Under the pieces are notes generated by a model that saw only the letters and a list, made by a program, of their open reading frames with translations, did not search any database and was not told the DNA's origin. This document shows, piece after piece, positions 25,901 to 62,559 of a stretch of DNA of 64,000 nucleotides (positions are counted from its first letter, which is position 1; every line of letters starts with the position of its first letter). The DNA comes from Endomicrobiia bacterium (GTDB lineage Bacteria > Elusimicrobiota > Endomicrobiia > DTEH01): the NCBI GenBank assembly GCA_039630545.1, contig JBCNUU010000002.1, positions 190,382 through 254,381 on the forward strand, written 5' to 3'. Both the position numbers and the translations under genes were made by a program.

Positions 25901-28876
25901 CTTTCAAAAAAGTTGGGTCAACCTAAGCCAGAATATATAGATGCCGCACTCGATCAATTGCACTATGTACTAGGTAGAAATGCTGTTAATAAGTGTTTTG
26001 TTACAGGCATAGGTTGGAATCAAGTTGCTAAGCCTCATCATAGATATTGTCAGCCTGCTCAGGTTATGATCCCGGGACAGTTAGTAGGAGGGCCAAACAA
26101 AGATGGTGCTGATTATACGAAACCTAATGAAACTTCATCTGTAGATTTAAAATCACCTGCAGGAGATCCAATGGAGACAACACCTCATCCTTATCCAAGA
26201 TATGATCATCCTTATGGAATTTTAAAAAAAGGAGATCCTTATCCTATAGCTAAGAGTTACTTTGATGATTGGAATGCTTATGCTTCCAACGAGTATGCTA
26301 TTGATTATCCGATAGGTTTAGTATTAGTTGCTAAATATTTTTCTCCTAAAGGACCTTCCTTGCCAAAAGTTAGGATACTATCTCCAACCGAAAACACACC
26401 TGTAGACAGTTACTCAATGATAATAAAAGCGTCTGTTGATAATCCTTCAAAAGTAAAAATCGTACAGTTTAATGTAGATGGTGGCACATGGCAAACAATG
26501 AAAGATGAAGGTGGTGGAGTTTACTCTGCTTTTTATAATGATGGTTCCAACAAACCTTATAACCCTAATGAAGATTTTGTTGTTACTAGATGGGATCACC
26601 AGGGAGCTAATTTTCAGACATTAGGTAGAGGCTGGAGTGGAGTATACGGAGATGATGGAGGTTCTTTGGTTAATGGAAGAAATTTACAAGGAGCAGGAGC
26701 TGATGCTTTATTGGTTTCTTCTTTACCGGATGGTAGTTCTCCTAGATCTGGTAATTATTGTGCTTTGTTTTCTTGGGATTTTAGACCGTTTGATCCTATA
26801 AGAAGTAGTATAGGATATGCTTATGCTGGTCAAGCAGCATTTTTTTATTCTGGAGAAACTAGTTATCATGATATTTCTAATTATACAGGACTTTACGTAT
26901 GGTTATGGGGTGATTATAGTAATATTGAGAATGGTGATGACTCAGTGGGTGCCTTAGTAAGAGTGCAACTTACAGATATTACAAAAGGCTCCACCAAAGA
27001 ATCTGGGTGTGAGTGGTGGGGAGTAAATTTAATGGTAAAACCAGGATGGAACAGATATGTAATACCTCTTTCTAAGTTTAGGGTTCCTGCTTGGGCTACT
27101 CCTGGAAATGGTTTAGATGATGGTATATTTAACACTAAAAGGATAAGAGGAGTTGAGTTTGTAGCAGAAACCGCTGATGTAAAAGGAACAATAGCAATAG
27201 ATGACATAGTTTTCTATAAAGGTTATCTTCCTCCTACAGAAAACGTAGATTTAGAAATATCAGATTTGGAATTTGAACAAAATGGTGTAAAAATTTCTGT
27301 AGGAGAAGTAAATAAAGAAATTAAAATAAATGCTTTGTTGAAAAATAAAACTTTCTGTCATGTTATAAATGTAAGGGTAATAGATGAAAACGATATGATC
27401 TGTGCTGATAGTGTGGTGGTTCCTTCAAGAAACAATGTTAATTTAAACCTTACATACACATTTTTTATAGACATAAATAAAAATGGAAAATATGATAGTT
27501 CCATTGATACCATTCTGCACACAAAACAAACTTCTTTTAAAGGTTCAGTAGTGCTTTCCGCTAGTTATACTCCTACCAATACTGGAGAATATATCATAGG
27601 TTTGATAGTAGATCCTTTAAACGAAATACCAGAAGATTCAGAACTCAATAACGTTATTACTAAAGCTCTTTATGTAGGAACTACTGCGATAGGTGGTTCT
27701 GATAATAACCAACAAAACACAGATTCCTCAGGGTCAGGAGGTAGTGGTGGAAATACAGGAGGGAATAATTCTATTACAGATACTACTCCACCTTCTAAAA
27801 TTACAAATCTTGCTGTAACATTAATTAACAACAAGGTAGGAAGAGTTCTTCTAACCTGGAGTTCTCCAGGGGATGACGGAAATAGTGGAAATTTTACAGG
27901 TGTTTTTATCTTGAAGTACTTAAGAACTGAAAGTTTGCCAGAAAATTATAACTGGCAGGATGAAAATGTAGTGACCATAAGTATTTCTACTTCAAATGTT
28001 AACGTTGGCAGTTTGCAACAATTTACTTTAGGACCTCTTGTGTTGAATTCTACTTATTATTTTAGGATATGGTCAAAAGATGATTCTAATAATTTATCTG
28101 AAGGTTCAAATATCGTTGGTATTTATGTGCCGTATACGGTAGAATCAACTACTAAGACTATTCAAAACACTACTTCTTTGCCTTATGCAGAAATAATTCC
28201 TAATTTAGGTTTTGTTAATGAAAGAAGAAGTTTTACATTAATAATAAATCCTAATGTCATACAAGGAGAAGGAATTGACTACATTCTTATAAGTGTACCT
28301 TTATGCAACACTCCTATATTGAAAAATATAATTATTAATAATCAAGTGGTAAAACCAAAACAAGTAAAAATATTTTCTAACCAAATAGAAATTTTACTTA
28401 GCTCAAAAGTTTCTTCTTTAATAAAAATTGAATTTTCTGTAAATTTACCTTCTTATACAAACAATATACAACTCATAGTGGAAACAGGTTTAAGTGAATA
28501 TCTAACAGATACATTTGTTTGTGTTGGAAAAGATACAGATGGAATAAATGGTAACTCAGACGATCTTTATATTAAAGTTAATCCAAGAAGTTTTGAAATA
28601 GATAACATAGTAGCATATCCATCGCCAGTTAAAGCCGATAAGATATACTTTATTTATAGACTTTCTCAAACCTCAAAACAAGTAAAAATCTATATCTTTA
28701 GCATGTTTGGAATTCTTATAGATGTAATAGATGGTAGCTGTCAAGGTGGCTACAATGAAGTTTTGTGGGAAAAAGTTAATAAGATTGGTAATGGTGTATA
28801 TCTTTATAAAATAGAAGCTGAAAGTTTAAATGGAGAAAAGGTTGTAAGGTGGGATAAGTTTTCAGTTTTAAGATAA
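22922..28876 (+). CDS. Large secreted multidomain GH9: signal, three Ig-like repeats, CelD-N Ig, GH9, Ig/CBM11-like/CARDB-like, Gly/Ser linker, FN3-like, C-terminal sorting-like domain
   Basis: IKVNQIGY, YYLQRCG, GGWHDAGDYNKY, LHYVLGRN, PHHR, YASNEYAIDY; C-terminus YPSPV...GVYLYKI...KFSVLR. Confidence 0.9.
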   Translation: MKINFLCLMIFLTLNLYSLPSINNITVQNNPKYLLKGQSYVVSFSYSGGNQPNQDTIFYAIGLSTNTIAEKTNSQTTPAPDYYLTTDDGSSSVNSNGTGIVSSNYGKRLPGDSGTKTITITIPTHIPDGEYYIVVIARDYYLDQATDFSYGVSNTKFVVAFNQPPKIFDLSFPLIGSTSTIFNFSARIEDPEEQTVSCSLYIDNQLVLPFQAKSSGETWSYQTSLSLGEHSYKWVAYDIFNSTSVYTGVLKVTQNFPEIQDLTSPSTGSIHTTFNFKCIVIDPENENVKVVLKINDREVFNDTKPSGSEFFYIISGNQLGGIGDYTYRWEAEDINGNKSSAVVGLVSVRGDSPPILENKVSPLAPLYGDFDTQFLLEVKAVPTDNPISKVELYIDGSLKTPTFDSNSQTYKFQIQGSQLGWGEHKYRWIAFDSKNNQSNPVEGLIRVASNRIKVNQIGYLPNYKKIAFVTYSDTKLWNSYSSQGTPPTNPASIARVIDVKTGRVVLDNISLPTPEWDENSWDYVQEIDFSSLTQEGIYCIEVPGIGRSCWFRISNNVYYDVFKTVFRSYYLQRCGISINDKISGVYHDVCHVNDALYFRRNDAPTLKFDAGTPNKGGSDTIGTALKVVPSGYFRGGWHDAGDYNKYATTIATVLLQFFWKYEKFHYLFQDDDLDIPESGNGIPDILDEAKYAVEFLLKMQIPRGGLGDPSIGIYVDSKYAGAVYHKCTNYDFGPFITPDIDGLARYIAGITPTDVGLFAGCMAQAARIYKDYFPELAQRAKQAAIFAWEWLETIPENDPSWIAGGTGQQPENMHTGPYLSRAGDIDERFVAAVELFKLTGEKKYEDYILSKYQDENNWKTELGAPVDTIYPFNWADMHTLGMFDYFDLLQEKIDKNEVLTPAQQQAYNFIKEKIFATADRVVKVVNNQYVFPTTPYNYPSDGKKYNNKYRVALVGGYKFSGYGEGDWPYYNEFVWASNKLAVAYAEILIFAYELSKKLGQPKPEYIDAALDQLHYVLGRNAVNKCFVTGIGWNQVAKPHHRYCQPAQVMIPGQLVGGPNKDGADYTKPNETSSVDLKSPAGDPMETTPHPYPRYDHPYGILKKGDPYPIAKSYFDDWNAYASNEYAIDYPIGLVLVAKYFSPKGPSLPKVRILSPTENTPVDSYSMIIKASVDNPSKVKIVQFNVDGGTWQTMKDEGGGVYSAFYNDGSNKPYNPNEDFVVTRWDHQGANFQTLGRGWSGVYGDDGGSLVNGRNLQGAGADALLVSSLPDGSSPRSGNYCALFSWDFRPFDPIRSSIGYAYAGQAAFFYSGETSYHDISNYTGLYVWLWGDYSNIENGDDSVGALVRVQLTDITKGSTKESGCEWWGVNLMVKPGWNRYVIPLSKFRVPAWATPGNGLDDGIFNTKRIRGVEFVAETADVKGTIAIDDIVFYKGYLPPTENVDLEISDLEFEQNGVKISVGEVNKEIKINALLKNKTFCHVINVRVIDENDMICADSVVVPSRNNVNLNLTYTFFIDINKNGKYDSSIDTILHTKQTSFKGSVVLSASYTPTNTGEYIIGLIVDPLNEIPEDSELNNVITKALYVGTTAIGGSDNNQQNTDSSGSGGSGGNTGGNNSITDTTPPSKITNLAVTLINNKVGRVLLTWSSPGDDGNSGNFTGVFILKYLRTESLPENYNWQDENVVTISISTSNVNVGSLQQFTLGPLVLNSTYYFRIWSKDDSNNLSEGSNIVGIYVPYTVESTTKTIQNTTSLPYAEIIPNLGFVNERRSFTLIINPNVIQGEGIDYILISVPLCNTPILKNIIINNQVVKPKQVKIFSNQIEILLSSKVSSLIKIEFSVNLPSYTNNIQLIVETGLSEYLTDTFVCVGKDTDGINGNSDDLYIKVNPRSFEIDNIVAYPSPVKADKIYFIYRLSQTSKQVKIYIFSMFGILIDVIDGSCQGGYNEVLWEKVNKIGNGVYLYKIEAESLNGEKVVRWDKFSVLR

Positions 28877-28905
28877 TATAAAAATAGTTTTTTTCCTTCT
28901 CTATT

Positions 28906-31900
28906 ATGAACAGCAAAAAATCGATTTTAATTTTGTTTTTTAGTATTGTTTTTAGTATTATAAAAGCTGGTGATTATAACTATGTAGATGCAATGGCTAA
29001 AACTCTTATGTTTTTTGAAGCTAACAGATGTGGAAAAAAGGTCAACATTTATAATAGATTTAACTGGAGAGGCCCATGTCATATATATGATGGTATAGAT
29101 ATAGGTGAAGACCTCGAAGGAGGTTATCACGATGCTGGAGATCATGTGATATTTGGTATGCCACAAACATATTCATTTAGTACTCTTGGATGGGCGTATT
29201 ATGAAACTAAAGATGTATACGAAAGAACAGGACAGAAAGTCTGGATGCTAAGAACTTTAAAGTATTTTTCAGATTTTTTTATGAAATGTCATAGGAACCC
29301 TGATATATTTTACTATCAAAAAGGTGATGGAACAATAGATCATAACTATTGGGGACCTCCTGAAATTCAAACATATGATGACTACAAAATAGCAAGAGCC
29401 ATCAAACATAAAGCATCATCAGATACACCAGCAGGAGATGTAGCAGCAAATGCTGCAGCAGGTATGGCTTTGATGTATTTAAATTACAAAGATGAGGATT
29501 ATAATTATGCTGTTGATTGTTTAACACATTCTTTAACTCTTTATAGGTTAGCTAGAAAGTATGAAGGATTAGGAACGGGTGACGGGTTTTATACTCATGA
29601 CACATTTGAGGACGATATGTCATTTGCTGCAGTTTGGCTTGCAAGAGCCTCAAAAGATTATGGAGATCAACAAATAAAACAAGACTTTGGAAGTATATTA
29701 AACTCAATCTTTGAAGAAAATGTAGTTGACAGTACTGTTACTATTTATCAAAGGTTTTTAGACGACGCAAAACTTTATTTAAGAAGAAAAGCAGGAACTC
29801 AAGACCCTGATGATTTTCAATACGAACCTTTCTGGCCTTATTGTTGGGGAAACATTTTTATGGGTTCTGTATTACTTTATGGGTTGGAAGTTGATTCTTA
29901 TCTTAAATCCTTAGGAAAATCAAATCCATATTTAGCTCAAATAAGAAAAGTTTTAGGAAATTATGCTTCAGGAACTTCTTATTTTTCTAAAACTCCAGGA
30001 GGACTTACCTATCCTAATACCTGGGGTGTTTTAAGATATGTATCTGCTGCAATGTTTTGTTTTGGAGTTTATCTTAAATATAATCCACAAGAACCGAACT
30101 ATCAAAGTTGGCTTCAATATATTAAATCTCAGATTGATTATATTTTAGGAGATAATCCAAGAGTTACAATTGATGTAGATCATCCAGAAGGTTTTTCCAA
30201 TCCTGGTTCTTATATAGTAGGTTGGGGTAAAAACCCACCTAAACATCCACATCATAGAGCAGCTCATGGAAGCAGAACCAACAATATGAATCAACCAAGA
30301 TATCATAAACACACACTTTATGGTGCATTAGTAGGGGGACCTAATTCGAATGACGTTCATAATGATGTCACTACAGATTATGTATTGAATGAAGTAGCAA
30401 TCGATTATAATGCCTCAGCTGTTGCAGGTTTAAGTATCGCTTCATACTTCTGGGGAAACCAGCAAATGCCGCTGCCTGATCCAGAACCAGAACCTCATCC
30501 TGGTGATGAGATTTATATAACAGCAGTTATGGGACAGGATTCTGGACAAAGATCACAACCTGCTGTGTATCTATATGTAGATACTAACTATCCACCGCAG
30601 TTTGTGTCTGATTTATCTTATAAGTATTTTTTCGACATTACAGAAATATTGAAAGCTAGTTCTACTTATTCTCATCAAAATATTAAAGTAGAAACAGCAT
30701 ATAATCCAGTTTCTTCTGCTACAATTTCTTCAGTCTTACCGTATGATATTTCCAGAAATATTTACTATGTAGAAGTTAAGTATAATCAACCATTACCATT
30801 TTGTATTACTACACCTATATTTTCTCCATATGCACCATATCAGTTTGCTTTAGTATTTCAAAGTCCAACATGGGAAGAAATATGGGATTCAAGAAATGAT
30901 TATTCAAGAATAGCACTTTCTACAGGAAGCACAGCTCAGGAAGCTGTTAAAACATATAGAATTCCTGTTTATAAAAATGGAGTCCTTATTTATGGGACTG
31001 AACCTGCAAGGAGATTTGATCCATTGGACGAGCCTCCTAGAATTTTTATTTCTCGACCTTATCCAAACACAACCTTAAGTGGTAATATTTATTTAGAAGG
31101 TTCTGCAGTAGATGATAAAGGAATAGAAAATTTTGTTTTTTACATCCATAATCCAGATACCATGCAGATATTATATGTCTCTACAATTACTCAGTATGTA
31201 CAAGCTCACACTACTTATACATTTAACACTTTTTGGGACTCTAAAAATTATCCTAATGGTGTATACCTTGTCAGAATGTTAACCACAGATACAAATGGTC
31301 AAACAGCAGTAGCTATTGAGTGGATAAACATAGACCACACTTTTTCATCATCCCAAAATTCTTATCCTCAAGTAAAGATTGTGTTTCCTGAAAATAATAC
31401 TTCAATTCAAAATAATTTTGAAGTTAGAGCGAACATCACTGATTATACTTCTGTTGCCTATGCAGAGTTGTGGATAAATGGTATATTTGTAAGTTCAAAA
31501 ACATCCTCTCCATATAACTGGTTGATAAACATTTCAAGTTTTGTCGTAGGTTCTACTGTAAGCATAAAAGTAGTAGGTGTTAACATACTTGGTTTATCTA
31601 GTTTTGATGAAATAAAAATCTTTATATCTTCGTCTCCATTATCCGAATTTATAGCAGATATTATTTTTGTTTCTCCTTCCAGTGGAAGTGTAGTTTCTAG
31701 ACAGGTGGAAATAAATGTGAATATCATTTCTTCTTCTACGATTTCTAAAGTTGAATTTTATATAGATGGTATCTTGAAATTTACAGATACTATTTCTCCA
31801 TACATCTATCTCTGGAACACTTTAGAGATATCAAATGGTTCTCATACTATAACTGTATATGCCTATGATTTTTATGGAAGAGTTTCTTCTAAAACGATTT

Positions 31901-32481
31901 CTGTAGAAGTTTTAAATATTATAAATGATAACCCACCACAGATTTCAATTTTAAATCTCATGAATGGTGAAACTATAAACGCAGATAAAACAGTTACGAT
32001 CAATGTAAAAGATGACAAAAAAATAGATAAAGTAAAAATTAAAGTCGGCAATAAACCTGAAGTTGAATATGATCTATCTCAAGAAAATTTAAAAGAAGTA
32101 AATATTAATTATACAATAAACCTAACTTTTTTCTTACCAAATCTTTCTTATATTTTTCAAGTTTATGCTGTGGACAGTTCCAGTCAATCTTCATATTTAA
32201 ATTACTATTTCAGTATAGCAACATCCTCTCAAGAAACTGAAGATGGTGGTTTTAAGAAAATATATGTGATCTCAAATAATAAAGATCATATAAACGAAAA
32301 AATAGAATTTCCGTTTTCGGTAGATTTATTTGAAGTATTTGACTCAAGAGGCAAAAAAGTATCTTCTCAAAAAAATGTATTAAAATGGGAACCATCTAAA
32401 GAGATAAAAAGTGGTTTTTATAGTTATGTAATTTCACACCAATCTAAAACTTATAAGGGGATTATAATTATTTGCAGGTAA
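28906..32481 (+). CDS. Secreted GH9-CBM3(c) endoglucanase (processive type) with about four Big domains and a C-terminal sorting-like domain
   Basis: NYVDAMAKTLMFFEANRCG, GGYHDAGDH, WGVLRY, HPHHRAAHGS, NEVAIDYNA; CBM3 motifs YKYFFDITE, WDSRNDYS, IPVYKNGVLIYGTEP. Confidence 0.92.
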   Translation: MNSKKSILILFFSIVFSIIKAGDYNYVDAMAKTLMFFEANRCGKKVNIYNRFNWRGPCHIYDGIDIGEDLEGGYHDAGDHVIFGMPQTYSFSTLGWAYYETKDVYERTGQKVWMLRTLKYFSDFFMKCHRNPDIFYYQKGDGTIDHNYWGPPEIQTYDDYKIARAIKHKASSDTPAGDVAANAAAGMALMYLNYKDEDYNYAVDCLTHSLTLYRLARKYEGLGTGDGFYTHDTFEDDMSFAAVWLARASKDYGDQQIKQDFGSILNSIFEENVVDSTVTIYQRFLDDAKLYLRRKAGTQDPDDFQYEPFWPYCWGNIFMGSVLLYGLEVDSYLKSLGKSNPYLAQIRKVLGNYASGTSYFSKTPGGLTYPNTWGVLRYVSAAMFCFGVYLKYNPQEPNYQSWLQYIKSQIDYILGDNPRVTIDVDHPEGFSNPGSYIVGWGKNPPKHPHHRAAHGSRTNNMNQPRYHKHTLYGALVGGPNSNDVHNDVTTDYVLNEVAIDYNASAVAGLSIASYFWGNQQMPLPDPEPEPHPGDEIYITAVMGQDSGQRSQPAVYLYVDTNYPPQFVSDLSYKYFFDITEILKASSTYSHQNIKVETAYNPVSSATISSVLPYDISRNIYYVEVKYNQPLPFCITTPIFSPYAPYQFALVFQSPTWEEIWDSRNDYSRIALSTGSTAQEAVKTYRIPVYKNGVLIYGTEPARRFDPLDEPPRIFISRPYPNTTLSGNIYLEGSAVDDKGIENFVFYIHNPDTMQILYVSTITQYVQAHTTYTFNTFWDSKNYPNGVYLVRMLTTDTNGQTAVAIEWINIDHTFSSSQNSYPQVKIVFPENNTSIQNNFEVRANITDYTSVAYAELWINGIFVSSKTSSPYNWLINISSFVVGSTVSIKVVGVNILGLSSFDEIKIFISSSPLSEFIADIIFVSPSSGSVVSRQVEINVNIISSSTISKVEFYIDGILKFTDTISPYIYLWNTLEISNGSHTITVYAYDFYGRVSSKTISVEVLNIINDNPPQISILNLMNGETINADKTVTINVKDDKKIDKVKIKVGNKPEVEYDLSQENLKEVNINYTINLTFFLPNLSYIFQVYAVDSSSQSSYLNYYFSIATSSQETEDGGFKKIYVISNNKDHINEKIEFPFSVDLFEVFDSRGKKVSSQKNVLKWEPSKEIKSGFYSYVISHQSKTYKGIIIICR

Positions 32482-32862: not shown

Positions 32863-35800
32863 GTGAAAAAGAATAGCAAACTTCTATTTTTATTTGTTTT
32901 TTATATTTTAATAAAAAGAAATATCTTTTCAGAGGAACTAATACTTCAAGCAGAAAAGACAAAAATACCTTCAAGACCTATAATAATTGATGAAACGGAA
33001 CCATTATATGGGACTTTAAATAAAGAATTTAATTTTAGAGCCAGAATAATTGAGACAGCTGACTCAGTAAAGGAAGTAAGCTTATATATTAATGATAAAA
33101 AATATGATGTAAAGCTTAAACCTTCAGGTTTTTATGAGTATCAAGTCAAAGGTTCTCAGTTAGGATATGGGATGCATTTTTATAAGTGGTATGTTGTTGA
33201 TAAAAAAGATAGGGTTGCTACTCCAGTATATGGAGTAATAAAAATTGCCTCTAATAGAATAAAAGTAAACCAGGTAGGATATAGAACAAAAGCAAAAAAA
33301 ATAGCTTTTATAACTTACAGTGACACAACAGACTGGACTGGTGAGGATGAAGGGGTTCCTCCTAAAAATTTTGCTAATAAATTTAAAGTAATCAATGCAA
33401 TTACTAAAAATCCAATTTATGAGGGTAGTCTAACTAAACCTAAATGGGACGAAAATTCATGGGATTATGTTCAAAAGGCAGATTTTAGCTCTGTAGTTAC
33501 ACCAGGGATTTATTATATTAAGGTTGAAGGCATAGGAGAATCGTGCTGGTTTTTAATAGACGATAACGTCTATTCTGATGTGGCAAAGACATTGATGAGG
33601 TCTTATTATCTTCAAAGATGTGGTGTATATATAAATGATTCTTTAAGTGGAGTATATCACAAAGCATGTCATCTATTTGATGCTTTATATTTTAACAGAG
33701 ATGATGCTCCTTCTAAAATGTGGGATGCAGGCACTCCGAATAAGCTGAACCCTGACGGTACTCCTGCGCTTGGAATTTCGCAAAAGGTGGTGCCATTAGG
33801 TTTCTTTAATGGAGGATGGCACGATGCAGGAGATTATAATAAATATGCTACAAGTGGTCTTTTTAGTTGTGCTGTTCTTCTTTGGTGTTATGAGAAGATG
33901 CCAGAAAAGTTTACAGATGGAGAGCTTGAAATTCCTGAATCAGGAAATGGTGTCCCTGATTTACTAGATGAGGTTAAGGTATATCTTGATTGGATACTTA
34001 AATGTCAAATTAAAGAAGGTGGTCTGGGACATCCATCTATTGGAATATACAAAGACAAAAAAGAAGTTGGTGCTGTATATCACAAAGTATCAACTTTTGA
34101 TTTTGGAGAATTTGTTCCTCCAGATCAAGAAGGCCTTCCCCGATATGTAGCAGGCATTACTACTACAGACGCTGCTCTTTTTGCAGGAGTAATGGCACAA
34201 GCAGCAAGAGTATATAAAAAATTTTACCCTTTATTTTCTCAAAAATACCTGGAAGCAGCAGAACTTGCCTGGAGGTGGTTAAAAACTAAAAAAGAAAATG
34301 ATCCAAAATGGATTGGAGGTGATGAAGGACAACAGCCTGAAAATATGAATACAGGTCCCTATGTAAGCAAAGCTGGAGATGTGGATGAAAGATTTTTTGC
34401 TGCTGTAGAGCTCTATAGAACAACAGGTAAACAGGAGTATGAAGATTATGTATTGTCTAAGTATGCAGATGAGAATAACTGGAAAACCGAGCTTGGTGCT
34501 CCAAGAGCTACTATTAGTGCATTTGATTGGGCTGATGTTCACACTATTGGTATGTGGCGATATTATGAGGTTCTTTTAACCAAAAAAGAACTTACAACAC
34601 AACAAAAAGAAGCAAAAGAATTTATAGAATCAAAAGCAAAAGAATACATGGATAGGATTCTTAAAATATACAGGGGAGAATATATTTATCCGGAAGGTCA
34701 TCCCCAAGAAGGAAAAAGATATGCAAATGAGTATAACATAGTACTATTAGGTGGCTACAAGTTTAAACCATATCATCCAACTAAACCAGATCATCAATGG
34801 CCACAAGATAATGAGTTTGTATGGGCTTCCAACAGAGTTATAACATCACATGGAATAAATTTGCTGATGCTTTATGAAGTTACTAAAAACAAAGAATTGT
34901 TGGAAATAGCAGAAGAACAAATTCATTATGTTCTTGGAAGAAATGCTGTAAACAAATGCTTCGTTACAGGAATAGGGTGGAATTATCCGTTTAAAACTCA
35001 CCATAGATATGTCCAACCCACAGGCATAATGATACCTGGCCTTGTAGTTGGTGGTTGTAATAGAGATGGAGCTGATTATACCAAACCCACTCAAACCTCA
35101 GCAATAGACAAAATAAAACCAGCTGGTGATCATGTTGAACTAACTCCACATCCATATGCAAGATTTAAACCCGTGCTTAAAACAAGAGGGGATGATATTT
35201 TCCCAGACATTCCACAAAATAAAGATTCAAATTATCCCTTACTTAAAAGTTACATAGATGAATGGAATGCATACGCCTCAAATGAATATGCTGTCGATTA
35301 TAATCCTGGTTTAATATTTTTAACCAAGTACTTTTCTTCACCTGCTTCTAAGAAGGAGTTAAGAGTAAAAATTCAACAACCTCAAGAAAATAGTTCACAT
35401 TTATTATCCGGTTTAACAATCAAAGCAGAAGTTATATCTTCTAATAAATTGCTTTTAGTTGAATATAACATAAATGGTGAAAAATGGAGAAGTTTAATAA
35501 ACACAAAAGGAAATGAGTATGAAGCTTTTTATAACGATGAAAGTGGACTTCCACTTAAAGAAAAAATATTAATAAGTGACTGTGAAATAAAAGATGTTAG
35601 AGCAAGAATTACTGATTTAGGTGGAGGATGGCTAGGTGCATATGGTGACGCAGGTGGTTCTATAGTTAATGGTAAAGATATGAAGGGAGAAGGAGGAGCT
35701 GCTTTGTTTGACTATGTAAATAGTAGACCAGATTCTTATAAACCTGGATCTGTGCTTTTTACCTGGGATTTTACTAAATTTAATCCCGCAAGGGTTCCAG

Positions 35801-36654
35801 CAGATAATCCTTCTGGTCCTTATGCATATGCTGGAAGTGGTTTTCAGATTGCACCAAGGCCTGGATATTATGATTGTAGAAAATTTAATGGAGTATCTGT
35901 GTGGATTTATGGAAGAGATGCTTCACCTGAAGTTGGAAAAGATGCTGTTGGGAATATGCTAAGAATTCAACTCAACGATTTTAATGATTTTAAAGGTCCA
36001 AAACAGGAAGGTGTTGAATACTGGGGGTATACTGTTTATGTAAGGCCTGGATGGAATCATTTTGTTGTTCCTTTTTACAAATTTAAAATTCCTGCATGGT
36101 GTACACCAAATAATGGAAGAGCAAATGAAGTTTTAGATTTAGACAAAATTCAAGCTGTGGAGTTTATTGCTTTAACTTCTGACCTTAAAGGAGAGGTTTC
36201 AATAGATGACTTAGAATTTTATATAGGTTACTTAGAGCCAACTTATGAACCTGATATTGAAGTACAAAAGATAGAAATATACGATAAAAACAATGAGTTA
36301 CTTCATTATATTCCAGCAAATCAAAAAGTTTATATTGTAGCAAAGGTAGTAAATTTAAATTCTGCGTGTTTTTTAAATGTAAGAGCAATTGATATTAAAG
36401 GTAATATTTCTTCAGACCAGATAATATTTCATAATATTAAAAAACCTGTTGAAAAAGTCAATGTAGCATTAGTTGTTGATGGGAAAGAAATAGATAAAAA
36501 AGAAGTGGATGTTAAAGCTGTAAAATTTGTAAAATTTGATTTTTCAACAGATGAAAAAGATGTAATAAAAGAAATTTCAGTAGTGGCATATAAATTACCT
36601 AAAGAAAAGATATATGAAAATAATACAAAAAAAGAGCAGATTGAGATAAGATAG
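32863..36654 (+). CDS. Secreted GH9, paralog of 22922..28876 (Ig, CelD-N, GH9, Ig/CBM11-like/CARDB-like), with no sorting-like CTD
   Basis: GTG start after AGGAGG; IKVNQVGY, GGWHDAGDYNKY, YASNEYAVDY; long near-identical blocks shared with the 1984-aa protein. Confidence 0.9.
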   Translation: MKKNSKLLFLFVFYILIKRNIFSEELILQAEKTKIPSRPIIIDETEPLYGTLNKEFNFRARIIETADSVKEVSLYINDKKYDVKLKPSGFYEYQVKGSQLGYGMHFYKWYVVDKKDRVATPVYGVIKIASNRIKVNQVGYRTKAKKIAFITYSDTTDWTGEDEGVPPKNFANKFKVINAITKNPIYEGSLTKPKWDENSWDYVQKADFSSVVTPGIYYIKVEGIGESCWFLIDDNVYSDVAKTLMRSYYLQRCGVYINDSLSGVYHKACHLFDALYFNRDDAPSKMWDAGTPNKLNPDGTPALGISQKVVPLGFFNGGWHDAGDYNKYATSGLFSCAVLLWCYEKMPEKFTDGELEIPESGNGVPDLLDEVKVYLDWILKCQIKEGGLGHPSIGIYKDKKEVGAVYHKVSTFDFGEFVPPDQEGLPRYVAGITTTDAALFAGVMAQAARVYKKFYPLFSQKYLEAAELAWRWLKTKKENDPKWIGGDEGQQPENMNTGPYVSKAGDVDERFFAAVELYRTTGKQEYEDYVLSKYADENNWKTELGAPRATISAFDWADVHTIGMWRYYEVLLTKKELTTQQKEAKEFIESKAKEYMDRILKIYRGEYIYPEGHPQEGKRYANEYNIVLLGGYKFKPYHPTKPDHQWPQDNEFVWASNRVITSHGINLLMLYEVTKNKELLEIAEEQIHYVLGRNAVNKCFVTGIGWNYPFKTHHRYVQPTGIMIPGLVVGGCNRDGADYTKPTQTSAIDKIKPAGDHVELTPHPYARFKPVLKTRGDDIFPDIPQNKDSNYPLLKSYIDEWNAYASNEYAVDYNPGLIFLTKYFSSPASKKELRVKIQQPQENSSHLLSGLTIKAEVISSNKLLLVEYNINGEKWRSLINTKGNEYEAFYNDESGLPLKEKILISDCEIKDVRARITDLGGGWLGAYGDAGGSIVNGKDMKGEGGAALFDYVNSRPDSYKPGSVLFTWDFTKFNPARVPADNPSGPYAYAGSGFQIAPRPGYYDCRKFNGVSVWIYGRDASPEVGKDAVGNMLRIQLNDFNDFKGPKQEGVEYWGYTVYVRPGWNHFVVPFYKFKIPAWCTPNNGRANEVLDLDKIQAVEFIALTSDLKGEVSIDDLEFYIGYLEPTYEPDIEVQKIEIYDKNNELLHYIPANQKVYIVAKVVNLNSACFLNVRAIDIKGNISSDQIIFHNIKKPVEKVNVALVVDGKEIDKKEVDVKAVKFVKFDFSTDEKDVIKEISVVAYKLPKEKIYENNTKKEQIEIR

Positions 36655-36661: not shown

Positions 36662-38935
36662 ATGTTTGTTAAATTTTTATTTATTTTAATTTGTTGTATT
36701 TTCATTTTATTTAAATATCTTGCTTCTTCTGAATTTATAAAGATAAACCAGCTTGGTTTTTTGCCCCACGAACAAAAAATTTTTTTTGTTTCAACTCACC
36801 CTGTGAGTTTAGAGTTTAAAGTTAAAAATCTAAATAATGAAACAGTATACCAAAGCACTTTAACTTATCGCGGATATGATTCATCTTCAGGTGATGAAAT
36901 TTATTCAGGAGATTTTTCAGCTTTATCTTTAAAAGGAACTTACTATATTGAAATACAAGGTTTAGAAAAATCGCATTTATTTACTATAAGTGAAGATGTG
37001 TATTTTGAGTTATTTATTAAATCATTAAGAGCATTTCTTTTACAAAGATGTGGTTGTGAGTTAAAAGAACCTGAACTTACCCATAAAGCTTGCCACACAA
37101 AAGACGGAGAGTTATTTTTGAGCGGTATGCCTTTTAAAGTTAACGCGGTTGGTGGTTGGCATGACGCTGGAGATTATGGTAAGTATATTGTTAATCTTGG
37201 TGTTTCTGTAGGTACTTTAATTCATATATATGAACTCTGCAAGGATAAATTTAAAGACAGACAACTTAATCTCCCAGATGTAGAAAGTTATGATAATGTT
37301 CCAGATATCTTAAACGAAGTAAAATATGGTATAAACTGGGTTTTCAGTATGCAAAATAAAAATACCGGTGGAGTTTACCATAAGCTCACAGCTAAAAATT
37401 TTGAACCATTAAATATTCTACCGGAAGAGGATTTTTCTGAAAGATACATTATTGATTTATCAAGAGGAACCACTTATTCTACAGAAACAACAGCAGCCAC
37501 AGGAAACTTTATTGGTATGCTTGCAGCTTTTTATAGAGTGTTTAAAGATTATGACTATGAATATGCTATAAAGTGTTTATCTTCTGCAATAAAAGCATGG
37601 GAGTTTTTAGAAAAAAATCCAGGTATAGTTCCTCCATATGGTTTTAGAAACCCGGAAGGGGTAGCTACTGGAGAGTATGGTGACAGCAACGATTCAGATG
37701 AAAGACTATGGGCTGCAGCTGAGCTTTTTCGTTCTACTTTAGAGAAAAAATATTCAGATTATTTTATCCAATATTATACTTCAATAAATTCTCCGCTTTC
37801 CTGGCAAAATTTAAAAAACTTAGCAGTTTACACATATTATTTTTCTTCTTCTGCAGATGAAAATATGAAACAAAGAATAAAAGAAGATGTTAAAAACTAC
37901 GCTGATTCTTTAATTTCAAGAATCCAAAACAACTGCTATAGTATAGTTTTAAGAAACACAGAATACTATTGGGGTTCAAATAGTGTATTGCTAAACTATG
38001 CTATTGATTTGATTTACGCATATGAGATAACAAGAGAGGAAAAATATAAAAAAGCTGCTTTAGAACAACTTCATTACATTTTGGGAAGAAACCCTACAGG
38101 TTACTGCTATGTAACAGGTATAGGTAAAAAATCTCCAAAAAATATTCATCATAGACCCTCAATAGCTATAAATAAGACAATTCCAGGTTTTCTTGTAGGT
38201 GGTCCTAACAGTCGTGGGAACGATCCTTTGCTTGCTGAATACATAAGGACTTACAACCCACCACCAGCAAAGTGTTATATTGATCACCAGGAAGCATATT
38301 CCTGTAATGAAATAGCGATAAACTGGAATGCACCTTTAGTTTTTTTGGTTGGATATTTTTTGCCGTATGAAAGTAGTAATATGACAGGTCCACCAATTGA
38401 TGTAGAATTAAAATTTCCTTCTAATAACTCAAAAGTTAGGGGCGAAATAAAATTAGATTTTACTATCCTTTGTAGCAGTGAAATAAAAAAAGTGGAGATA
38501 TGGTTAAACGATTATAAAGAGGTCACACTTTATTCAAATGTTTCAAATTATTTTTTGGATACAACTAAATATCCTGACGGAGTTTATTCTTTAAAAATAA
38601 AAGTAGAGGATATATTAGGCAATTATGTAGAAAAAAGTATCTTGATAGAAATTATCAACAAGTATTTTTCAAAATTTTCCAACAAGATGTTGTTAACATT
38701 GAACAATGATAATATAAATGACTCTGTAGATTTTTCAGATAATTCAAAATTAGAGATAAAACAAGTAAATATTTATGATACAAAGGGTTCTTTAGTAAAA
38801 AATATAAAAAAAGCACCATTTATATGGGATGGAAAAGATAACAAAAATAGAAAATTACCAAATGGAATTTATTTGTATTTAATTGAAACAAAAAATAACA
38901 GTACAATAAAAGGTATGATTGTTCTTGTAGATTGA
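36662..38935 (+). CDS. Secreted GH9 (CelD-N Ig, GH9, Big) with C-terminal sorting-like domain
   Basis: IKINQLGF, GGWHDAGDYGKY, YYWGSN, IHHRPS, YSCNEIAINWNA; tail IYDTKG...WDGKD...NGIYLY. Confidence 0.92.
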   Translation: MFVKFLFILICCIFILFKYLASSEFIKINQLGFLPHEQKIFFVSTHPVSLEFKVKNLNNETVYQSTLTYRGYDSSSGDEIYSGDFSALSLKGTYYIEIQGLEKSHLFTISEDVYFELFIKSLRAFLLQRCGCELKEPELTHKACHTKDGELFLSGMPFKVNAVGGWHDAGDYGKYIVNLGVSVGTLIHIYELCKDKFKDRQLNLPDVESYDNVPDILNEVKYGINWVFSMQNKNTGGVYHKLTAKNFEPLNILPEEDFSERYIIDLSRGTTYSTETTAATGNFIGMLAAFYRVFKDYDYEYAIKCLSSAIKAWEFLEKNPGIVPPYGFRNPEGVATGEYGDSNDSDERLWAAAELFRSTLEKKYSDYFIQYYTSINSPLSWQNLKNLAVYTYYFSSSADENMKQRIKEDVKNYADSLISRIQNNCYSIVLRNTEYYWGSNSVLLNYAIDLIYAYEITREEKYKKAALEQLHYILGRNPTGYCYVTGIGKKSPKNIHHRPSIAINKTIPGFLVGGPNSRGNDPLLAEYIRTYNPPPAKCYIDHQEAYSCNEIAINWNAPLVFLVGYFLPYESSNMTGPPIDVELKFPSNNSKVRGEIKLDFTILCSSEIKKVEIWLNDYKEVTLYSNVSNYFLDTTKYPDGVYSLKIKVEDILGNYVEKSILIEIINKYFSKFSNKMLLTLNNDNINDSVDFSDNSKLEIKQVNIYDTKGSLVKNIKKAPFIWDGKDNKNRKLPNGIYLYLIETKNNSTIKGMIVLVD

Positions 38936-41475: not shown

Positions 41476-41477
41476 AA

Positions 41478-42554: not shown

Positions 42555-45500
42555 ATGTATTATATACCTTTTTTGATATTTATACTCTCTGGAGTTTCTT
42601 TTTCAGATGAACTCATAATAAGCCAGGCAGGTTATAGTTTATACGAAGAAAAACTTGCTTATTTTTGTTCAAAGGAAAAACTTAAAGATATAAGTTTTTT
42701 AGTGTTGGATAAGAAAACAAAAAAAGAAGTTGCAAAAGATACTATGAGTTTTTATGGAAAATATTTTGACAAATACTTTTATATTATAGATTTAACTTCT
42801 TTAAAGGAAGGTGAATATATCTTAAAAACCAACCAGAAAGAGACATCCTTTTTTGTTAAAAAAGATATTTATAGAAACCTTTATTTAGATACCATAAAGA
42901 ATTATTTTTACATTCAAAGATGCGGTATGGAGATTCCAGGATGGCATAAACCTTGTCATTTGGATGATGCTGTTGTACCTTTTTCAGACAAAAAATTAGT
43001 AGATTCTTTAATTTTAACTCAACTTCCATGTTATCATCCTAACACCCATATAGATGTAACAGGTGGTTGGCATGATGCTGGTGACTATAATAAATACATG
43101 GGTAATTTAGCAGTAGCAGTAGGTATTTTGGGCGTTGCGTTTGAAGAGTTTAACTTAGTCGATGATTTTAACCACAATGATTATCCTGATATATTAGAAG
43201 AACTAAAGTACGCAATAGATTGGATGTTGAAAATGCAGGATAAAGATGGCGGAGTTTTTGAGAGAGTTTTTTCTGGATATGAATATAAAGGATTGCCTGA
43301 AAAAGAAACAGATAACAAGCCAAAAACTTCTGATGATAGATATTTAGATATAGATAAGTTTACTGATATAGCTGGAAAGTTTTTAGCAGCTTCTGCGATA
43401 TGTAGTAGAATATTTGAAAAATACGATAAAACATATTCACAAAACATCTTACAGGCAGCTTTAAAAACCTGAAAGTGGATAAAGAAAAATCCAAACAAAT
43501 ACGATTTAGAACCCTGGAGTTTTGGAAGATACCCGGGAGATAAATCTGCTGTAGTATGGGGAGCTGTTGAGATGCACCAGACGACAAAAAATTTTGAATT
43601 TTTGGATTTTGCAGAAAGGAGAGTTTTAGAAATAAAAGCGGTAGGAGGAAGTTTAAACCATATGAGCTGGTTATTCCAGCCAGTCATAGCTTTAAGCAAA
43701 GTTTATATGTTTACAAACCATGATGGTATAAAAAAAGTAATTAAGAGAGAACTAAACAATTACTTTAAAAAGTATGTTGAATTTTCAGCAGAAAATCCTT
43801 TTTATTTAAGAACAGGTTTTATAGATGCATGGGAATGGGGGACTAACGCGCTTGTGTTAGGAACAGGTTTTGATCTTTATTGGATAAGTAAAGTTTTGCA
43901 GGATAATTCAATTATTAATTCAGCAATTAAATCCAGACAGTGGGTTTTAGGACTTAATTATATGGGAAAATCATTTGTGGTAGGTGTGGGAAATTCTATA
44001 GAAAATCCATATAGTTTGCTTGCCTTATCTTCACAGAATAAAAAAAGAATTTTAGGAGCGGTTCTTCCTGGTATGTATATATTACAAGGAAAACCATTTT
44101 ATACTGAACAACAGGGCAGTTTCAAATGTAACGAAGCTACTATAGATGCCGCTGCTTTATATGTGTTTAATGTAGCTATTCCAGAAAGTGATGTGTGTAT
44201 AAATTTACTTTCACCAAAAAGAAATGCAGTAGTTAAAGGTGTAATTGAGTTAAAACTTGAAGTTTTAACAAATAAGGAAATAAAGGAAGTGTTATACAAA
44301 ATTGATGATGAAGAATTCAAAGTATTGCCTTATCGTGATGGCTATTTTTCTACCAGAATAGATACAACACTTTTAGAAGATGGTGAGCATATCATATATA
44401 TAAAGGTAAAGAATGACCAAAAAATAATAGGAGGTAATTTTTTTAAGATAAATGTTGATAATGTAGAAGAACCTCTTAAAATCTATATAATAAGTCCTCA
44501 AAATGGTGAAGTTTATGTAGGAGGTTGTGAGATATTATGTAAAATAAATGACGATAAGATTCACAACTATGAATTATTTTACAGTGTTGACAATGCAAAA
44601 TCCTGGAATAAACTAAAAACTAAAGACAGAGAATTTTATAGTGAGTTTATACCCACAAATCCAAAAGAAACCACTATTCAACTAAAAGCCGTTGATATAA
44701 CCACTCAAAAGACAACTTTTTCAGATAAAATAAGCTTCACAGTTGTTAGAACTGGAAGATTACAAACAGAACAAAACTATAAAGTCTTAGAAGATTCCTC
44801 GCAAACTCCCATAGGTCAAGAAAAAAGAAAATATGATGATTCAGGCTGTGTAGTTTTACCGGATGAAAAAGATTCCATATCTATTGAGTTTTTCATATGT
44901 CAAGATGGCAATTATATTTTAAGACATAGAGAACGATCTGGAGATGTGTATTGGAAGTCCCCTACATCCAGATGGGATCAAGATACTTACATCTACTATC
45001 TTGATGGCAAAGAATTGAAGTTTAAAGCATTACCTGATTCTGTTACTAAAGAAAGTGACTTATATGGAGAATATTGGGGAATTAGAGAAACTGATAAAAT
45101 TTATTTAACAAAAGGTAAACATACTTTTACAGTAAAAACCAAACAGGTTTGGGCATATTCTGATTATTTAGATGTAATTTATGAATCAGACATAGACAAA
45201 AAATTTTTAGAGTCAAAAGTGAAAATTTTAGATAACTTTGAAAAAGTAAAACTTGACTGGGGTTCTTATAAAGGTCCTGCTTCAGAAATAAATCTTCAAA
45301 TTACAAATCTAAATCAAAAATTTGGTGAAAAATGTCTTAAATTTGATTGCGTGAATAAGGATTACGCAGGCATAGTCTATAATAATAAATTTGATTGGTC
45401 AAGTTATAAATTCATAGAAATGTGGTTGTACTCTACACAAGACTGCAAAATACATTTTGTCATAGAAGAGAGAAAAGAAAAAACATTTTGGGGTAGTGAC

Positions 45501-45701
45501 TATGAAATAACTGAAAAAAACAAATGGATATACTTGAAGCTACCATTTGAAGATTTTAGTGTAGATACAGAATATCAACCTGGCAATAAAGATGATAAAG
45601 TATTGAATCTGGAAGATGTTATGACTTTTCATGTTTCTTTAAAAACACAATCTGATAAAAAAATAACTATTTTCATAGATGATCTTAGATTAACCAAATG
45701 A
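42555..45701 (+). pseudogene. Secreted GH9 with Big domains and a C-terminal CBM11-like domain, interrupted by an in-frame TGA at 43470-43472
   Basis: ORFs 42555..43472 and 43572..45701 share a frame. The first part has GGWHDAGDYNKY and the second has the catalytic FKCNEATID. The linker reads AALKT*KWIKKNP. Read through it would be 1048 aa. Confidence 0.8.
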
Positions 45702-56865: not shown

Positions 56866-56893
56866 ATTTCTTTATATAAAAAGGACATTAAAA

Positions 56894-59272: not shown

Positions 59273-62200
59273 ATGAAAAATAAAAAATTCCTAATATTTT
59301 TTATATCTCTTTTCATGATATTACAGGTATTAACAACTATACCATCTTTTTGTGACTTATATAAAGATAGGTTCTTAGAGCTATATAATTGTATAAAAAC
59401 TAATGGTTGTTTGTCTCCTGAAGGTATTCCTTATCATTCAAGAGAAAAAAGAATTGTAGAAGCTACAGACTACGGTCACTGCTCTACATCAGAAGGAATT
59501 TCTTTTTTGATATGGTTAGAGGCAATGTATGACTATATTACCAACAATTCAAACTGGAGTAATTTTTCAAGAGCCTGGGACATATGTGAACGGTATTATA
59601 TTCCACCTTCTTCAGAACAACCAAATTTTGCCTATAATTCTTCAAAACCAGCTTCAGTTGTAGATGAACATGATTCACCAACAGCATATCCTTCCAGTGT
59701 AGATACAAACGCTCCTGTAGGAAACGACCCAATTTGGAGTTCAGTTACATCAGCTACTGGAAGGCAGATACCTTATCTTCTTCATTGGTACTTAGATGTA
59801 GACGATTGGTTGGGATTTGGTCAAGCATTTAATATAGGAATTTCAGGAAAAGATGGAAGAAGAATAGTAAAAACAAACACATTCCAAAGAGGCCCTAACG
59901 AATCTACCTGGGAAACAATTCATCATCCTTCTTTTGATAAAAAACCAGATTACAACACATTTTATGTTCCTTTATTTGTTCAATCAGATTCAGCTCAATG
60001 GAGGTATACTTCAGCTCCTGATGCAGAAGCAAGGATAGCTCAAGCTATGTGGTGGGCAGAGTTGTGGGCTGCACAAAAAGGTGTAAACATTAACAACTAT
60101 ATAACAAAAACTCGTAATTTAGGTCACTGGATGAGATATTGTTTATTTGACAAGTATTTTAGAAGAATAGGACAAGCTGGTTCAGCAGGAAGTGGTTATA
60201 ACAGCTGTCATTATTTAATAAGTTGGTACATTGCTTGGGGCGGTCCTGTTCAACAATCTGAAAGATGGGGTTTTCTTATTGGTTGTCATTCTGCACATAC
60301 TGGATATCAAAATCCACTGGGTGCTTATTATTGGGCACAAAAAGGAGTTCCTGATTGGGAAAAAAGTTTAAGAACACAGCTTGCTTTAGCAAAATGGCTT
60401 CAAGTTCCGAAGGGAAATTTAGGGGAAGGTGCATTTGGAGGAGGTGTATGTAATGACTATCCAGATGATGATGTAGAATACACAGCATCTGATGCACCTA
60501 CTTTTAACCCACCTACTTACACAGATGGTCAGATGCCTTTAAGATACACTCACCATCCAGTATACTGGGATCCAGGTAGCAACACCTGGTGTGGTTGGCA
60601 GTACTGGTTTTCAGAACGTCTTGCACAGTTTTATTTTATACTTCCCTCTACAAGTCCATATCTATCTGACACATATTCTATTTTAAAAAACTGGATGGAT
60701 TTGTGGGCAGTTCCTAATTTCAAAGTTAAAATTAACGGTCAGTGGTATACAGCAGATACTCTTACAACATCACAATTAAGAAACACAGATCTCATTGAAG
60801 ATGTAAACATTCCTATAAGTTTTGTAAATTGGGATTGGTTAAATCCTCAAAATAACAATCCCTTAGATGCACCTGGTCCTCGTCAATCTTCTACTCGGTG
60901 GCAAGGTTGGAATGGAAAGGGTCCTGGAGACCCAAATTATGGAGCCAAAGTAGAGGCATGGGGGCACGATGTAGGGCTTATGGGAGCATTTGTAAAATGC
61001 TTAATTTTTTATAAACAAGGACTTCAAAAACACAACCACCAATCCAGATTTGAACCAGATTTTTATAAATACTTAGCAAAAACAATACTTGATGTAATGT
61101 GGAAAAATTTCAAAACAGACCTTGGTATTTCTGCACCAGAAATAAGGACAGATTATGTAAGATTTACTGATACCACCATATCCACTGTATATGTTCCTCA
61201 ATCCAAACGGTTTCCCAACATAGGCTTGGTAAACCAGGGAAATCGTGCCTTTAAAGATACAAGACCTGATTATGGAGAACCAATTCCGCAAGATTACAAA
61301 TTCACATATCACAGAACCTGGCAACAAGCGGCGTTTGCTTTAGCTTTAGGGTATTATTCTTTATATGAAAACAGAGATAATCCTCCATCAATAACCCTGA
61401 TTTCACCATCCACATCTACTATATTAACTGGAAGTGTAGAAGTTCGTGCAAATATTACAGATGATATTGAACTACGAAAAGTTGAACTTTATGTGAACAA
61501 TAACTTAAAATATGAAACAATACTTACTACTAATACTTATTTACTTAACTGGATATGGAATACTTCTGAACTTTTAGATTCAACACATACATTAAAAATT
61601 GTTGCTGTAGATAGCAGTTCACAAACATTTACTTATCAGGCAGTATTTAGAACAGATAATAATACTCCTCCAACAGTCTCAATCGTTAATCCTTTGAATA
61701 ACTCAAATGTTTCCGGAGTTGTAAACATAGAAATCCAAGCACAAGATCAGGCTCCGGGATATGTAGAAAGGGTGGTTTTAAGCATCACTAACCCTTCTCA
61801 AAGTTATACTTTGCAGTATACATTTTTACAACCACCCTACACCTATAGTTGGGATACTACATCTCTTTCAACAGGAAGTTATATAATTCGTGCAATCGCC
61901 TATGACAATATGCAAGAATTTTCGCAAGCTCAAATAAATATAAGGATATTTAGAATAGAAGGAGATAATCCTCCTCAAATCACTATAATTTCACCACAAA
62001 ATAATGCTACATACTATCTTACAGACACTATAAATCTTCACTACCAAGCAACTGATGATAATCTTCTTAGTGTGTTAGAAATATTTATTGACAATATTTT
62101 GTTTAGCAGCACAACACTAAACTTATCCTCTTATCAAACTACAACTTCTATTTACGCAAACAATCTATCCACTGGAACTCACTGGTTAGTTGCGGAAGAG

Positions 62201-62559
62201 TAAAAGACAACTCTTCACAACAAAACTCAGCTTCAGTAATGATTAGAATTCTTTCATCTCAATTCTATCCTACAACCAACAATCTGATGGAGGTTCAACT
62301 CCTTATAGATGATATAGATGAAGACTATACTTTAATTTCTGATTACTTGATACTTACTCCTAACAATGACGGTATAAACGACAAAATTGTTTTTTCTGAA
62401 AATATTCCTTATGAGATATTTACAAAAGATGGACAAAAAATTTTCTCTGATATATCTAATAATTGGGATGGTAAGGATTACTATAACTTAATAGTCCAGA
62501 ATGGTCTTTATTTGCTAAAAACTGACACAAAAATTTATTTTGTATTAGTAGCAAGATAA
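59273..62559 (+). CDS. GH48 cellobiohydrolase-type cellulase with three Big domains and a C-terminal sorting-like domain; frameshift near 62195
   Basis: GIPYHS, VEATDYGH.STSE, HW.LDVD, NTFQRG..ESTWETI, WRYTSAPDAEAR, HYLISWYIAWGG, YHRTWQQ. The frame of ORF 62239..62559 is open back to the break (RVKDNSSQQNSASVMIRI). Confidence 0.9.

Follow-up and report, generated by a model that had tools for sequence, protein, structure and literature searches.

In Bacteroidota, the closest described counterpart of the export route considered here is the type IX system of secretion, or T9SS; the relevant sections of a 2023 review restrict proteins with its C-terminal domain (CTD) to that phylum and count a GldLM motor and a GldKN ring among the core parts of the machinery (PMC10202324). 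In Flavobacterium johnsoniae, according to the accessible part of a 2024 study, cargo is loaded without energy, motor-driven release is the energy-requiring step, and the conserved terminal lysine binds PorV (PMC10994853). Excerpts of other work describe a CTD on a Cloacimonadota scaffoldin (PMC8542988) and mention Elusimicrobia for Tol-Pal only (PMC12204202) or as largely without cellulases (PMC7031533). Literature searches, with subscription papers and supplements outside their scope, returned no account of an Elusimicrobiota T9SS. In Rhodothermus, Chlorobi and Fibrobacter, sprA has been noted where gldKLMN is missing, and such tails receive automatic database labels in many phyla, so that a motor-less set is not wholly unforeseen. 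Here we analysed a stretch of 64,000 nucleotides (the window) from an Endomicrobiia bacterium of the phylum Elusimicrobiota, which encodes several cellulases of glycoside hydrolase (GH) families 9, 48 and 5. A preliminary description had proposed that four of these enzymes end in related tails, one type-A-like and three type-B-like, and that a T9SS-like or analogous export or anchoring route handles them.

We found that the four tails belong to the T9SS CTD fold family and that the route appears homologous to T9SS, not merely analogous, because an SprA homologue and PorV-like barrels are present, are linked to tagged genes and are lost together with the tags. Taking these observations together, we propose, with a probability of about three in four, that a reduced T9SS consisting of a short SprA pore and PorV-like carriers, with tags that are likely uncleaved, exports the cellulases. 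The genes and tails in question are the following (CBM, carbohydrate-binding module; Ig, immunoglobulin; ORF, open reading frame).

22922..28876, plus strand: GH9 cellulase W1, 1,984 aa, with a signal-like N-terminus, Ig repeats, CelD_N, GH9, Big_7, further Ig-like modules and a tag
28592..28876, plus strand: tag 1, a type-A-like CTD (YPSP...GxY...terminal R) that groups with YPNP-type tags, outside the enzyme clade
28906..32481, plus strand: GH9-CBM3c cellulase W2, 1,191 aa, with four Big_7 spacers and a tag
32254..32481, plus strand: tag 2, a type-B-like "enzyme-class" CTD, kept in orthologues P0002-P0005 at 38-55% identity
36662..38935, plus strand: GH9 cellulase W3, 757 aa, with CelD_N, GH9, Big_7 and a tag
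38684..38935, plus strand: tag 3, a type-B-like "enzyme-class" CTD ending in D, above the TIGR04131 cut-off and modelled by AlphaFold2 as a beta-sandwich
59273..62203, plus strand: GH48 exoglucanase W4, which carries Big_7 spacers and is cut short by a frameshift near 62195
62341..62559, plus strand: tag 4, the detached GH48 C-terminus, in a separate 106-aa ORF (62239-62559)

A sequence check of the window located the four previously quoted tail motifs within these tags. Scored alone against the four families suggested for the purpose, tail 3 was above cut-off for TIGR04131 (47.7 bits, cut-off 35), PF13585 (51.5, cut-off 27), PF13860 (30.3, cut-off 27) and TIGR04183 (24.6, cut-off 23), and tails 1, 2 and 4 matched the same families below cut-off, tail 1 just under that of TIGR04183 (21.9 bits, E 1e-4) and tails 2 and 4 with sub-cut-off PF13585 matches (E 5e-4 and 2e-5). 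A profile built from the 29 other tags of the genome, with the four window tails excluded from the build although those 29 had first been gathered by iterating from them, recovered each of them at the very C-terminal end (E 1e-15 for tail 3, 3e-7 for tail 2 and 1e-5 for tails 1 and 4) and no other of the 45 window ORFs, and its best match in a reversed-proteome control had E 0.18. In a further profile search, the tag matched PorU (E 2e-6), NucA-CTD (E 3e-6), FspA-CTD and PorZ. The AlphaFold2 model of tail 3, the sole tail folded, is a beta-sandwich (pLDDT 90) that superimposed on solved T9SS CTDs with Z 7.6-8.1 (RemZ 8.1, PorU 7.9, RemA 7.8), at root-mean-square deviations of 2.4-4.1 over 70-83 aligned residues. 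Thus, the relatedness of the tails and their division into one type-A-like and three type-B-like members, by family scores and by a tree of tags, stood up to scrutiny, and the tails align.

The claim that tail 4 sits on its enzyme does not hold in this assembly, where tail and GH48 lie in separate frames. Three related hot-spring runs (one study, no more than two samples) yielded contigs with two bases fewer near 62195, which places GH48 and tail in one frame, and five full-length GH48 orthologues (P0122-P0126, 1,084-1,101 aa) end in the tail, as does the orthologue in genome G002. Tagged orthologues of W1 occur in G002 and G003.

The host genome (G000; 1.60 Mb, 29% GC, 95.5% complete), in which the window forms the end of contig C12, is that of a diderm, with BamA, LptC, LpxK and Tol-Pal present. 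An iterated profile found the terminal tag on 33 ORFs genome-wide, so that the four window tails are real but do not make up the whole set; TIGR04183 alone gave 25 matches, 22 of them above cut-off. Tagged cargo comprises GH9, GH48, GH8, GH5 and GH114-GH16 enzymes, M6 peptidases and a PLD, as well as fn3, PKD and beta-helix proteins, one protein of at least 6,718 aa and two tag-only proteins. A terminal K or R was present in 31 of the 33 tags, compared with 27% of 1,154 ORFs. Signal-like N-termini were assigned to 23 of the 33 by a hydrophobicity heuristic and to 5 more by eye, and the other 5 lack an N-terminus; all 28 tagged ORFs with an intact N-terminus thus look signal-bearing, in disagreement with an equal occurrence on cytoplasmic proteins. 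In the tree of the 33 tags, a clade of 12 that belong mostly to hydrolases (rough support, 85/84) took in tails 2-4, and tail 1 fell among the YPNP-type tags. The protein of at least 6,718 aa (G000:C34:120306-141206) is directly followed by a secreted cyclophilin-type peptidyl-prolyl isomerase, an activity that the F. johnsoniae translocon also holds.

The genome encodes a 1,733-aa SprA-like protein (G000:C12:74846-80047) that ends in a barrel signature and that TIGR04189 matched in three collinear stretches below cut-off. As a single sequence, it gave no match by phmmer against the PDB and none in Pfam; only an alignment reached SprA, with 17 SprA-like homologues, all matched by TIGR04189, hitting F. 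johnsoniae SprA (PDB 6h3i/6h3j) over four stretches (E 3e-25) and nothing else under E 0.5. ESM Atlas placed the protein in SprA_N clusters (0.98-0.99), and the SprA-like loci nearest to it (50-79% identity) bear Endomicrobia or Elusimicrobia titles. PorV-like ORFs number 22 in the genome, 3 of them cut by contig ends; NF033709 matched 14 ORFs, 3 above its subfamily cut-off, none reached the PorV or PorQ equivalog cut-off, and their alignment matched PorV 6h3i_F with E 7e-20. The genome search called for earlier therefore found homologues of both SprA and PorV, below equivalog cut-offs, and the proposal of a T9SS-like route gains from it.

Pore, carriers and tags are linked in gene order. A PorV-like gene lies directly downstream of 13 of the 33 tagged genes (14 including a pair on C5 dropped by the ORF filter), where 0.5-1.5 were expected and at most 6 occurred in 3,000 shuffles, and a tag or PorV-like gene lies no more than 3 kb away at 29 of 67 sprA-like loci. 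A PorV-like gene directly downstream was found for 0/12 enzyme-class tags and 14/21 others (p 2e-4, with paralogues that are not independent). As side observations, some PorV-like barrels are fused to internal tag-like domains and OmpA, to LysM or to helix-hairpin-helix (ComEA-like) domains (G000:C1:33695-36435; C56:45118-46464; C23:186027-187460; C5:8250-9365), which by their domain content suggests wall-anchoring and DNA-binding variants. The sprA-like gene (L052-L071) adjoins, usually divergently, genes that we take to be lptF/lptG-like in most relatives and is often upstream of a presumably ComF-like gene.

Pore and tags also share a pattern of loss. In an even draw of 151 genomes across the phylum, in which kin genomes are not independent, an SprA-like gene was found in 143, PorV-like genes in 147 and tags in 106. 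Tags were absent in 8/8 genomes without SprA and in 1/2 with an SprA remnant, the four genomes without PorV-like genes all lack SprA, and the SprA and tag losses span four genera; in family f4, tags occurred in 36/37 genomes with a strong SprA versus 1/9 without it or with a remnant. By distribution, the SprA/PorV machinery is ancestral to the phylum and the cellulase cargo is a genus-level addition.

The remaining parts of a T9SS were not found. GldM and GldN were matched in 0/151 genomes at E 1e-3 and GldL in none above cut-off, with 1 weak match, in searches that had no positive control (a GldM control sought in five genomes matched in none). GldK was represented by no FGE-sulfatase domain in this 95.5% complete genome, with 3 controls passing the cut-off, and the peptidase C25 domain (PF01364) of the PorU sortase was absent here and present in 2/151 genomes of the phylum. 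NCBIfam scans of 134 + 14 (=148) exported or candidate proteins, with 57 further heuristic exported ORFs read by eye only, contained no PorU, PorZ or Gld core and revealed Skp beside bamA. A search for PorP/SprF returned one weak TIGR03519 match only. For SprE, two 940-aa TPR proteins reached 92 and 65 bits where the cut-off is 250, and both scored higher on generic TPR models. The genome check thus came out in favor of SprA and PorV only. Since GldKLMN and PorU were not found, the tags are predicted to remain uncleaved, and CTD cleavage is predicted not to occur. We do not file the route as a canonical T9SS, as pore, carriers and tags are present and ring, motor and sortase were either not found or not demonstrable. 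A class A beta-lactamase-like protein was also noted (L039:3994-5010), its 127 bits falling short of the 200 set for the family.

Several observations weigh against a reduced T9SS and lend weight to other explanations. Curated cut-offs are passed by tail 3 only, and this tail ends in D, not K/R; its top structural matches come from streptococcal proteases, in their internal Fn domains (Z 9.6), Foldseek with the tag gave no match at E 1e-3, the best sequence match of the tag is flagellar FlgD, and a tag-like domain is also internal in two PorV-like proteins and one cargo. Because the streptococcal domains and FlgD match better, the fold alone is not diagnostic, and a CTD-like fold is necessary but not sufficient. 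The Fn matches and the internal copies would suit tails that are ordinary terminal Ig/Fn3-like modules acting as spacer, stabilizer or carbohydrate binder, on enzymes that leave by a type IV pilus or type II secretion system-type secretin or by vesicles; a PilQ-type secretin is present, and 0/4 tagged genes of the window adjoin a PorV-like gene. Yet the domain is strictly terminal in 33 ORFs of unrelated cargo, with the K/R bias at its end and two tag-only proteins, it is linked to PorV-like genes and co-lost with SprA, and, although orthologous tails (38-55% identity) are conserved about as well as the Ig spacers and far less than the catalytic domains, the tail is not lost, which makes this explanation very unlikely. 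The SprA-like protein in turn scores low on TIGR04189 (45-79 bits, cut-off 200) and, at ~670 aa less, is short of the 2,403 aa of F. johnsoniae SprA, and the GldL/M/N searches lack a positive control. Another explanation would be a full T9SS, with motor, ring and sortase too diverged for curated models, and with tags cleaved and cargo attached as in Bacteroidota. The low SprA score, the incompleteness of the genome, the 57 ORFs outside the family scans and an ExbB-ExbD-ExbD-TPR cassette within a tag/PorV cluster on contig C6 would leave room for it. Against this stand the missing GldK domain despite matching controls, a C25 search that works elsewhere in the phylum but finds nothing here, the absence of GldM and GldN matches, and the lack of any counterpart of the C6 cassette in G026, G030 and G078, and we regard a hidden full system as the least probable explanation of all. 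A further difficulty is that SprA is present in 45/46 genomes of family f18 but a profile-detectable tag in only 10/46, perhaps through divergence from the tag profile. The weakest step is energy: release in F. johnsoniae, in the pertinent part of the 2024 study, needs the motor and SprE/SkpA (PMC10994853), of which SprE is matched here by generic TPR proteins only, and weakly.

A flagellum-free motor encoded outside the window could fill this gap. Pfam, Atlas and fold comparison identified a FliF_C-transmembrane-FliG fusion (FliG E 1e-12, FliF MS-ring E 4e-4) that occurs in 54/151 genomes, 53 of them also with MotB, and FlhA (PF00771) was absent from this genome and found in 4/151 of the phylum, with 4 controls matching. 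At 40 loci picked on the fusion, a PorV-like gene, mostly TPR-extended, lies directly upstream of 31/42 fusion genes (3 of the 11 misses have <600 bp upstream, and some neighbors were visible beforehand), and a frequent order is tag gene, PorV-TPR, fusion, motA, motB. The route might therefore be the same with the FliF-FliG ring and MotA/MotB replacing GldLM/GldKN and energizing the release of cargo, including the cellulases, from SprA. However, one protein query found the fusion in 1/46 f4 and 0/46 f18 genomes (MotB in 1 and 3, weakly), though most of these keep SprA and f4 keeps tags; SprA and tags are retained without the motor in 36 genomes; the motor goes with a single PorV-TPR paralogue and the cargo of that paralogue, with motor genes beside sprA at 0/67 loci; and, of the two motB genes of one cassette in this assembly, one carries a frameshift and the other has N for the conserved D. 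Genomes G026 and G030 have SprA, 7-13 PorV-like genes and 7-8 tags with only one MotA/ExbB-family (TolQ-like) gene, beside tolB. Because the motor is nearly absent from f4 and f18, never stands beside sprA and is dispensed with in G026 and G030, it would seem an add-on for PorV-TPR cargo, not a general energizer, and we consider it unlikely that it drives the release of the cellulases; release of ordinary cargo is likely motor-independent or Tol-assisted.

The motor genes nonetheless form conspicuous loci, and flagellum-free motor genes are kept across most families of the phylum. In this genome, they include a tag-only gene, PorV-TPR, a FliF-FliG-TPR fusion and two giant coiled coils (G000:C12:54296-65569, L013), a second FliF-FliG fusion with motA and two motB (G000:C2:16520-20230, L142), and a further motA-motB pair, with an ECF sigma factor and a 2,500-aa tagged protein downstream of it (G000:C34:12028-13542, L029). 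Among the matches listed, look-alikes of the fusion cluster in Cloacimonadota, Bdellovibrionota and Bacteroidota too. The C6 cluster (G000:C6:4977-26101; L017, L018) comprises, on one strand, tagged genes, four PorV-like genes, a 945-aa TPR protein, ExbB, two ExbD, GH8, GH9 and three putative outer-membrane barrels (649, 724 and 176 aa), and its content makes it a candidate sugar-uptake or export-accessory module. Its ExbB/ExbD cassette was considered as a general energizer and rejected, as 4/5 genomes examined have no counterpart beyond a TolQ-like gene or MotA.

A reduced T9SS would act in the following manner. Judging by the signal-like N-termini, Sec would export the enzymes to the periplasm, where the folded tag, by homology to the F. 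johnsoniae translocon, may enter SprA and bind the loops of a PorV-like carrier through its terminal Lys/Arg. Carrier and cargo would then exit via the lateral gate with the tag not removed, as no PorU was found, leaving the enzyme held at the surface by tag and carrier, where its Ig spacers would raise it, or released with the tag still attached. For structural and adhesin cargo, a dedicated carrier gene mostly lies alongside, and the enzyme-class tags (tails 2-4), with no carrier directly downstream, likely share one. A PorV-like gene at C12:19160 is not favored as this shared carrier, being there in G003 and absent in G005. GldKLMN, not found, would not be involved, and release would probably be independent of the FliF-FliG/MotAB motor, which is missing from many SprA-positive genomes and more likely acts on PorV-TPR-bound cargo. 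Untagged GH9 and GH48 paralogues likely finish degradation in the periplasm. In congeners, tagged and untagged paralogues keep their tag state, in line with a division of the enzymes between surface and periplasm, and Cytophaga, with its periplasmic cellulases, offers a parallel.

The cellulases themselves are confined to one genus. GH9 occurs in 9/251 genomes of the phylum, with strong matches in this genus only (5/7 including this genome), and GH48 in 2/5 congeners searched and in G002. In nearest-protein searches, the closest relatives of W2 and W4 outside the lineage were dockerin- or CBM-bearing enzymes (the named ones mostly Bacillota for W2, and Bacillota-type for W4), of which 0/115 and 1/114 were tagged, and the catalytic domains are 35-44% identical to clostridial-type relatives; in both enzymes, the native tag appears to stand in place of dockerin or CBM. 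W3 is closest to Ignavibacteria-type GH9s, 94/108 of them with a T9SS tag, and two named Goldbacteria matches are untagged. No donor is claimed from these nearest-protein matches. Enzyme-class tag counts (18 in G002, 11 in G005 and 3 each in G004, G006 and G009) track GH9 content and, with G002 and G005 sequences contained in the profile, are circular and were not counted as evidence.

Not every cellulase of the window is tagged, and three further genes complete the set.

32863..36654, plus strand: untagged GH9 paralogue of W1, 1,263 aa, with orthologues in G002 and G005 likewise untagged
42555..45701, plus strand: untagged GH9-CBM11 gene, interrupted by an in-frame TGA at 43470-43472
62654..64000, plus strand: GH5-Big_7 cellulase, cut by the contig end, whose G005 orthologue (1,011 aa) ends in a tag

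The GH9 at 32863-36654 is predicted to stay periplasmic, and the GH5-Big_7 enzyme is, from its orthologue, the predicted fifth tagged enzyme of the window. Related contigs read through the TGA of the GH9-CBM11 gene, and G003 has one 1,061-aa untagged ORF; recoding of TGA was set aside, as related contigs differ at that codon. The two breaks in the window, absent from related contigs, are therefore read as assembly error or strain-level decay. Other envelope genes of the assembly are broken as well (G000:C2:17241-17900, the motB frameshift; C12:170967-178121; C67:17232-18149), the breaks among envelope genes comprising the GH9 stop, the GH48 and motB frameshifts, a split BNR adhesin and a stop in a PorV-like leader. 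Sugar-use genes surround the cellulases (13373-20118 and 41478-59259), several of them named by assumption: we take them to encode an ABC transporter, a cellobiose-phosphorylase-like protein, LacI and GntR regulators, xylulokinase-, transketolase- and xylose-isomerase-like proteins, a GH52/GH116-like enzyme and a signal-less GH5. Their presence agrees with a genuine utilization of the products of cellulose and xylan. Lipoproteins with Flg_new_2 (InlB B-like) repeats adjoin tagged glycoside hydrolases at window 39092-40360 and at G000:C1:111950-115399, and related Flg_new_2-repeat proteins in G002 end in a tag instead.

Viewed more broadly, and tentatively, these gene contents might describe an Elusimicrobiota T9SS that lacks sortase and Gld motor, an exporter pared down to SprA plus carriers in which each cargo class has a carrier of its own, which needs no dedicated energizer in some lineages and in others works with a flagellar rotor-stator put to new use, and whose tag one hot-spring genus may have grafted onto borrowed GH9/GH48 enzymes, possibly becoming the phylum's first cellulose degrader, with a clostridial-type enzyme pair on a Gram-negative surface. 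If true, a phylum-wide SprA/PorV/CTD set without motor and ring would show a minimal T9SS and push its origin deeper, the role of the motor in secretion would become testable in a simpler system, and hot-spring cellulases with a portable surface-display tag would be of practical interest.

Compared with the T9SS of Bacteroidota, as far as the pertinent sections of the two sources describe it (PMC10202324, PMC10994853), the system shares the terminal beta-sandwich tag with GxY and terminal K/R behind a signal-like N-terminus, the SprA-family pore, the PorV-family barrels, and polysaccharide-degrading and adhesin cargo. It differs in belonging to another phylum, in an SprA of about 1,730 aa versus 2,403, in that GldL/M/N (searched without positive control), GldK and PorU were not found and no SprE was convincing, and in about 20 PorV-like paralogues within 1.6 Mb, several with periplasmic TPR, LysM or OmpA extensions. 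With SprB-SprF of F. johnsoniae, a pairing of type B CTD and PorP/SprF, it shares cargo gene clusters with their own carrier and a tag that is probably uncleaved (PMC10202324, in the section concerned), whereas the paired carriers here score as PorV/PorQ family, not PorP, and the arrangement is inverted, with most YPNP (type-A-like) tags beside a neighboring carrier and type-B-like enzyme-class tags in 0/12 cases. Free or cellulosomal clostridial GH9-CBM3c and GH48 enzymes provide the nearest outside catalytic domains of W2 and W4, but their dockerin or CBM2/3 tail is replaced here by Big_7 spacers and an outer-membrane export tag. Finally, the fusion protein and its stators share domains and fold with the flagellar motor core (FliF RBM3, FliG, MotA/MotB), unlike which they are built around a single-chain fusion, occur in a phylum with no FlhA in 147/151 genomes, and are linked to PorV-TPR.

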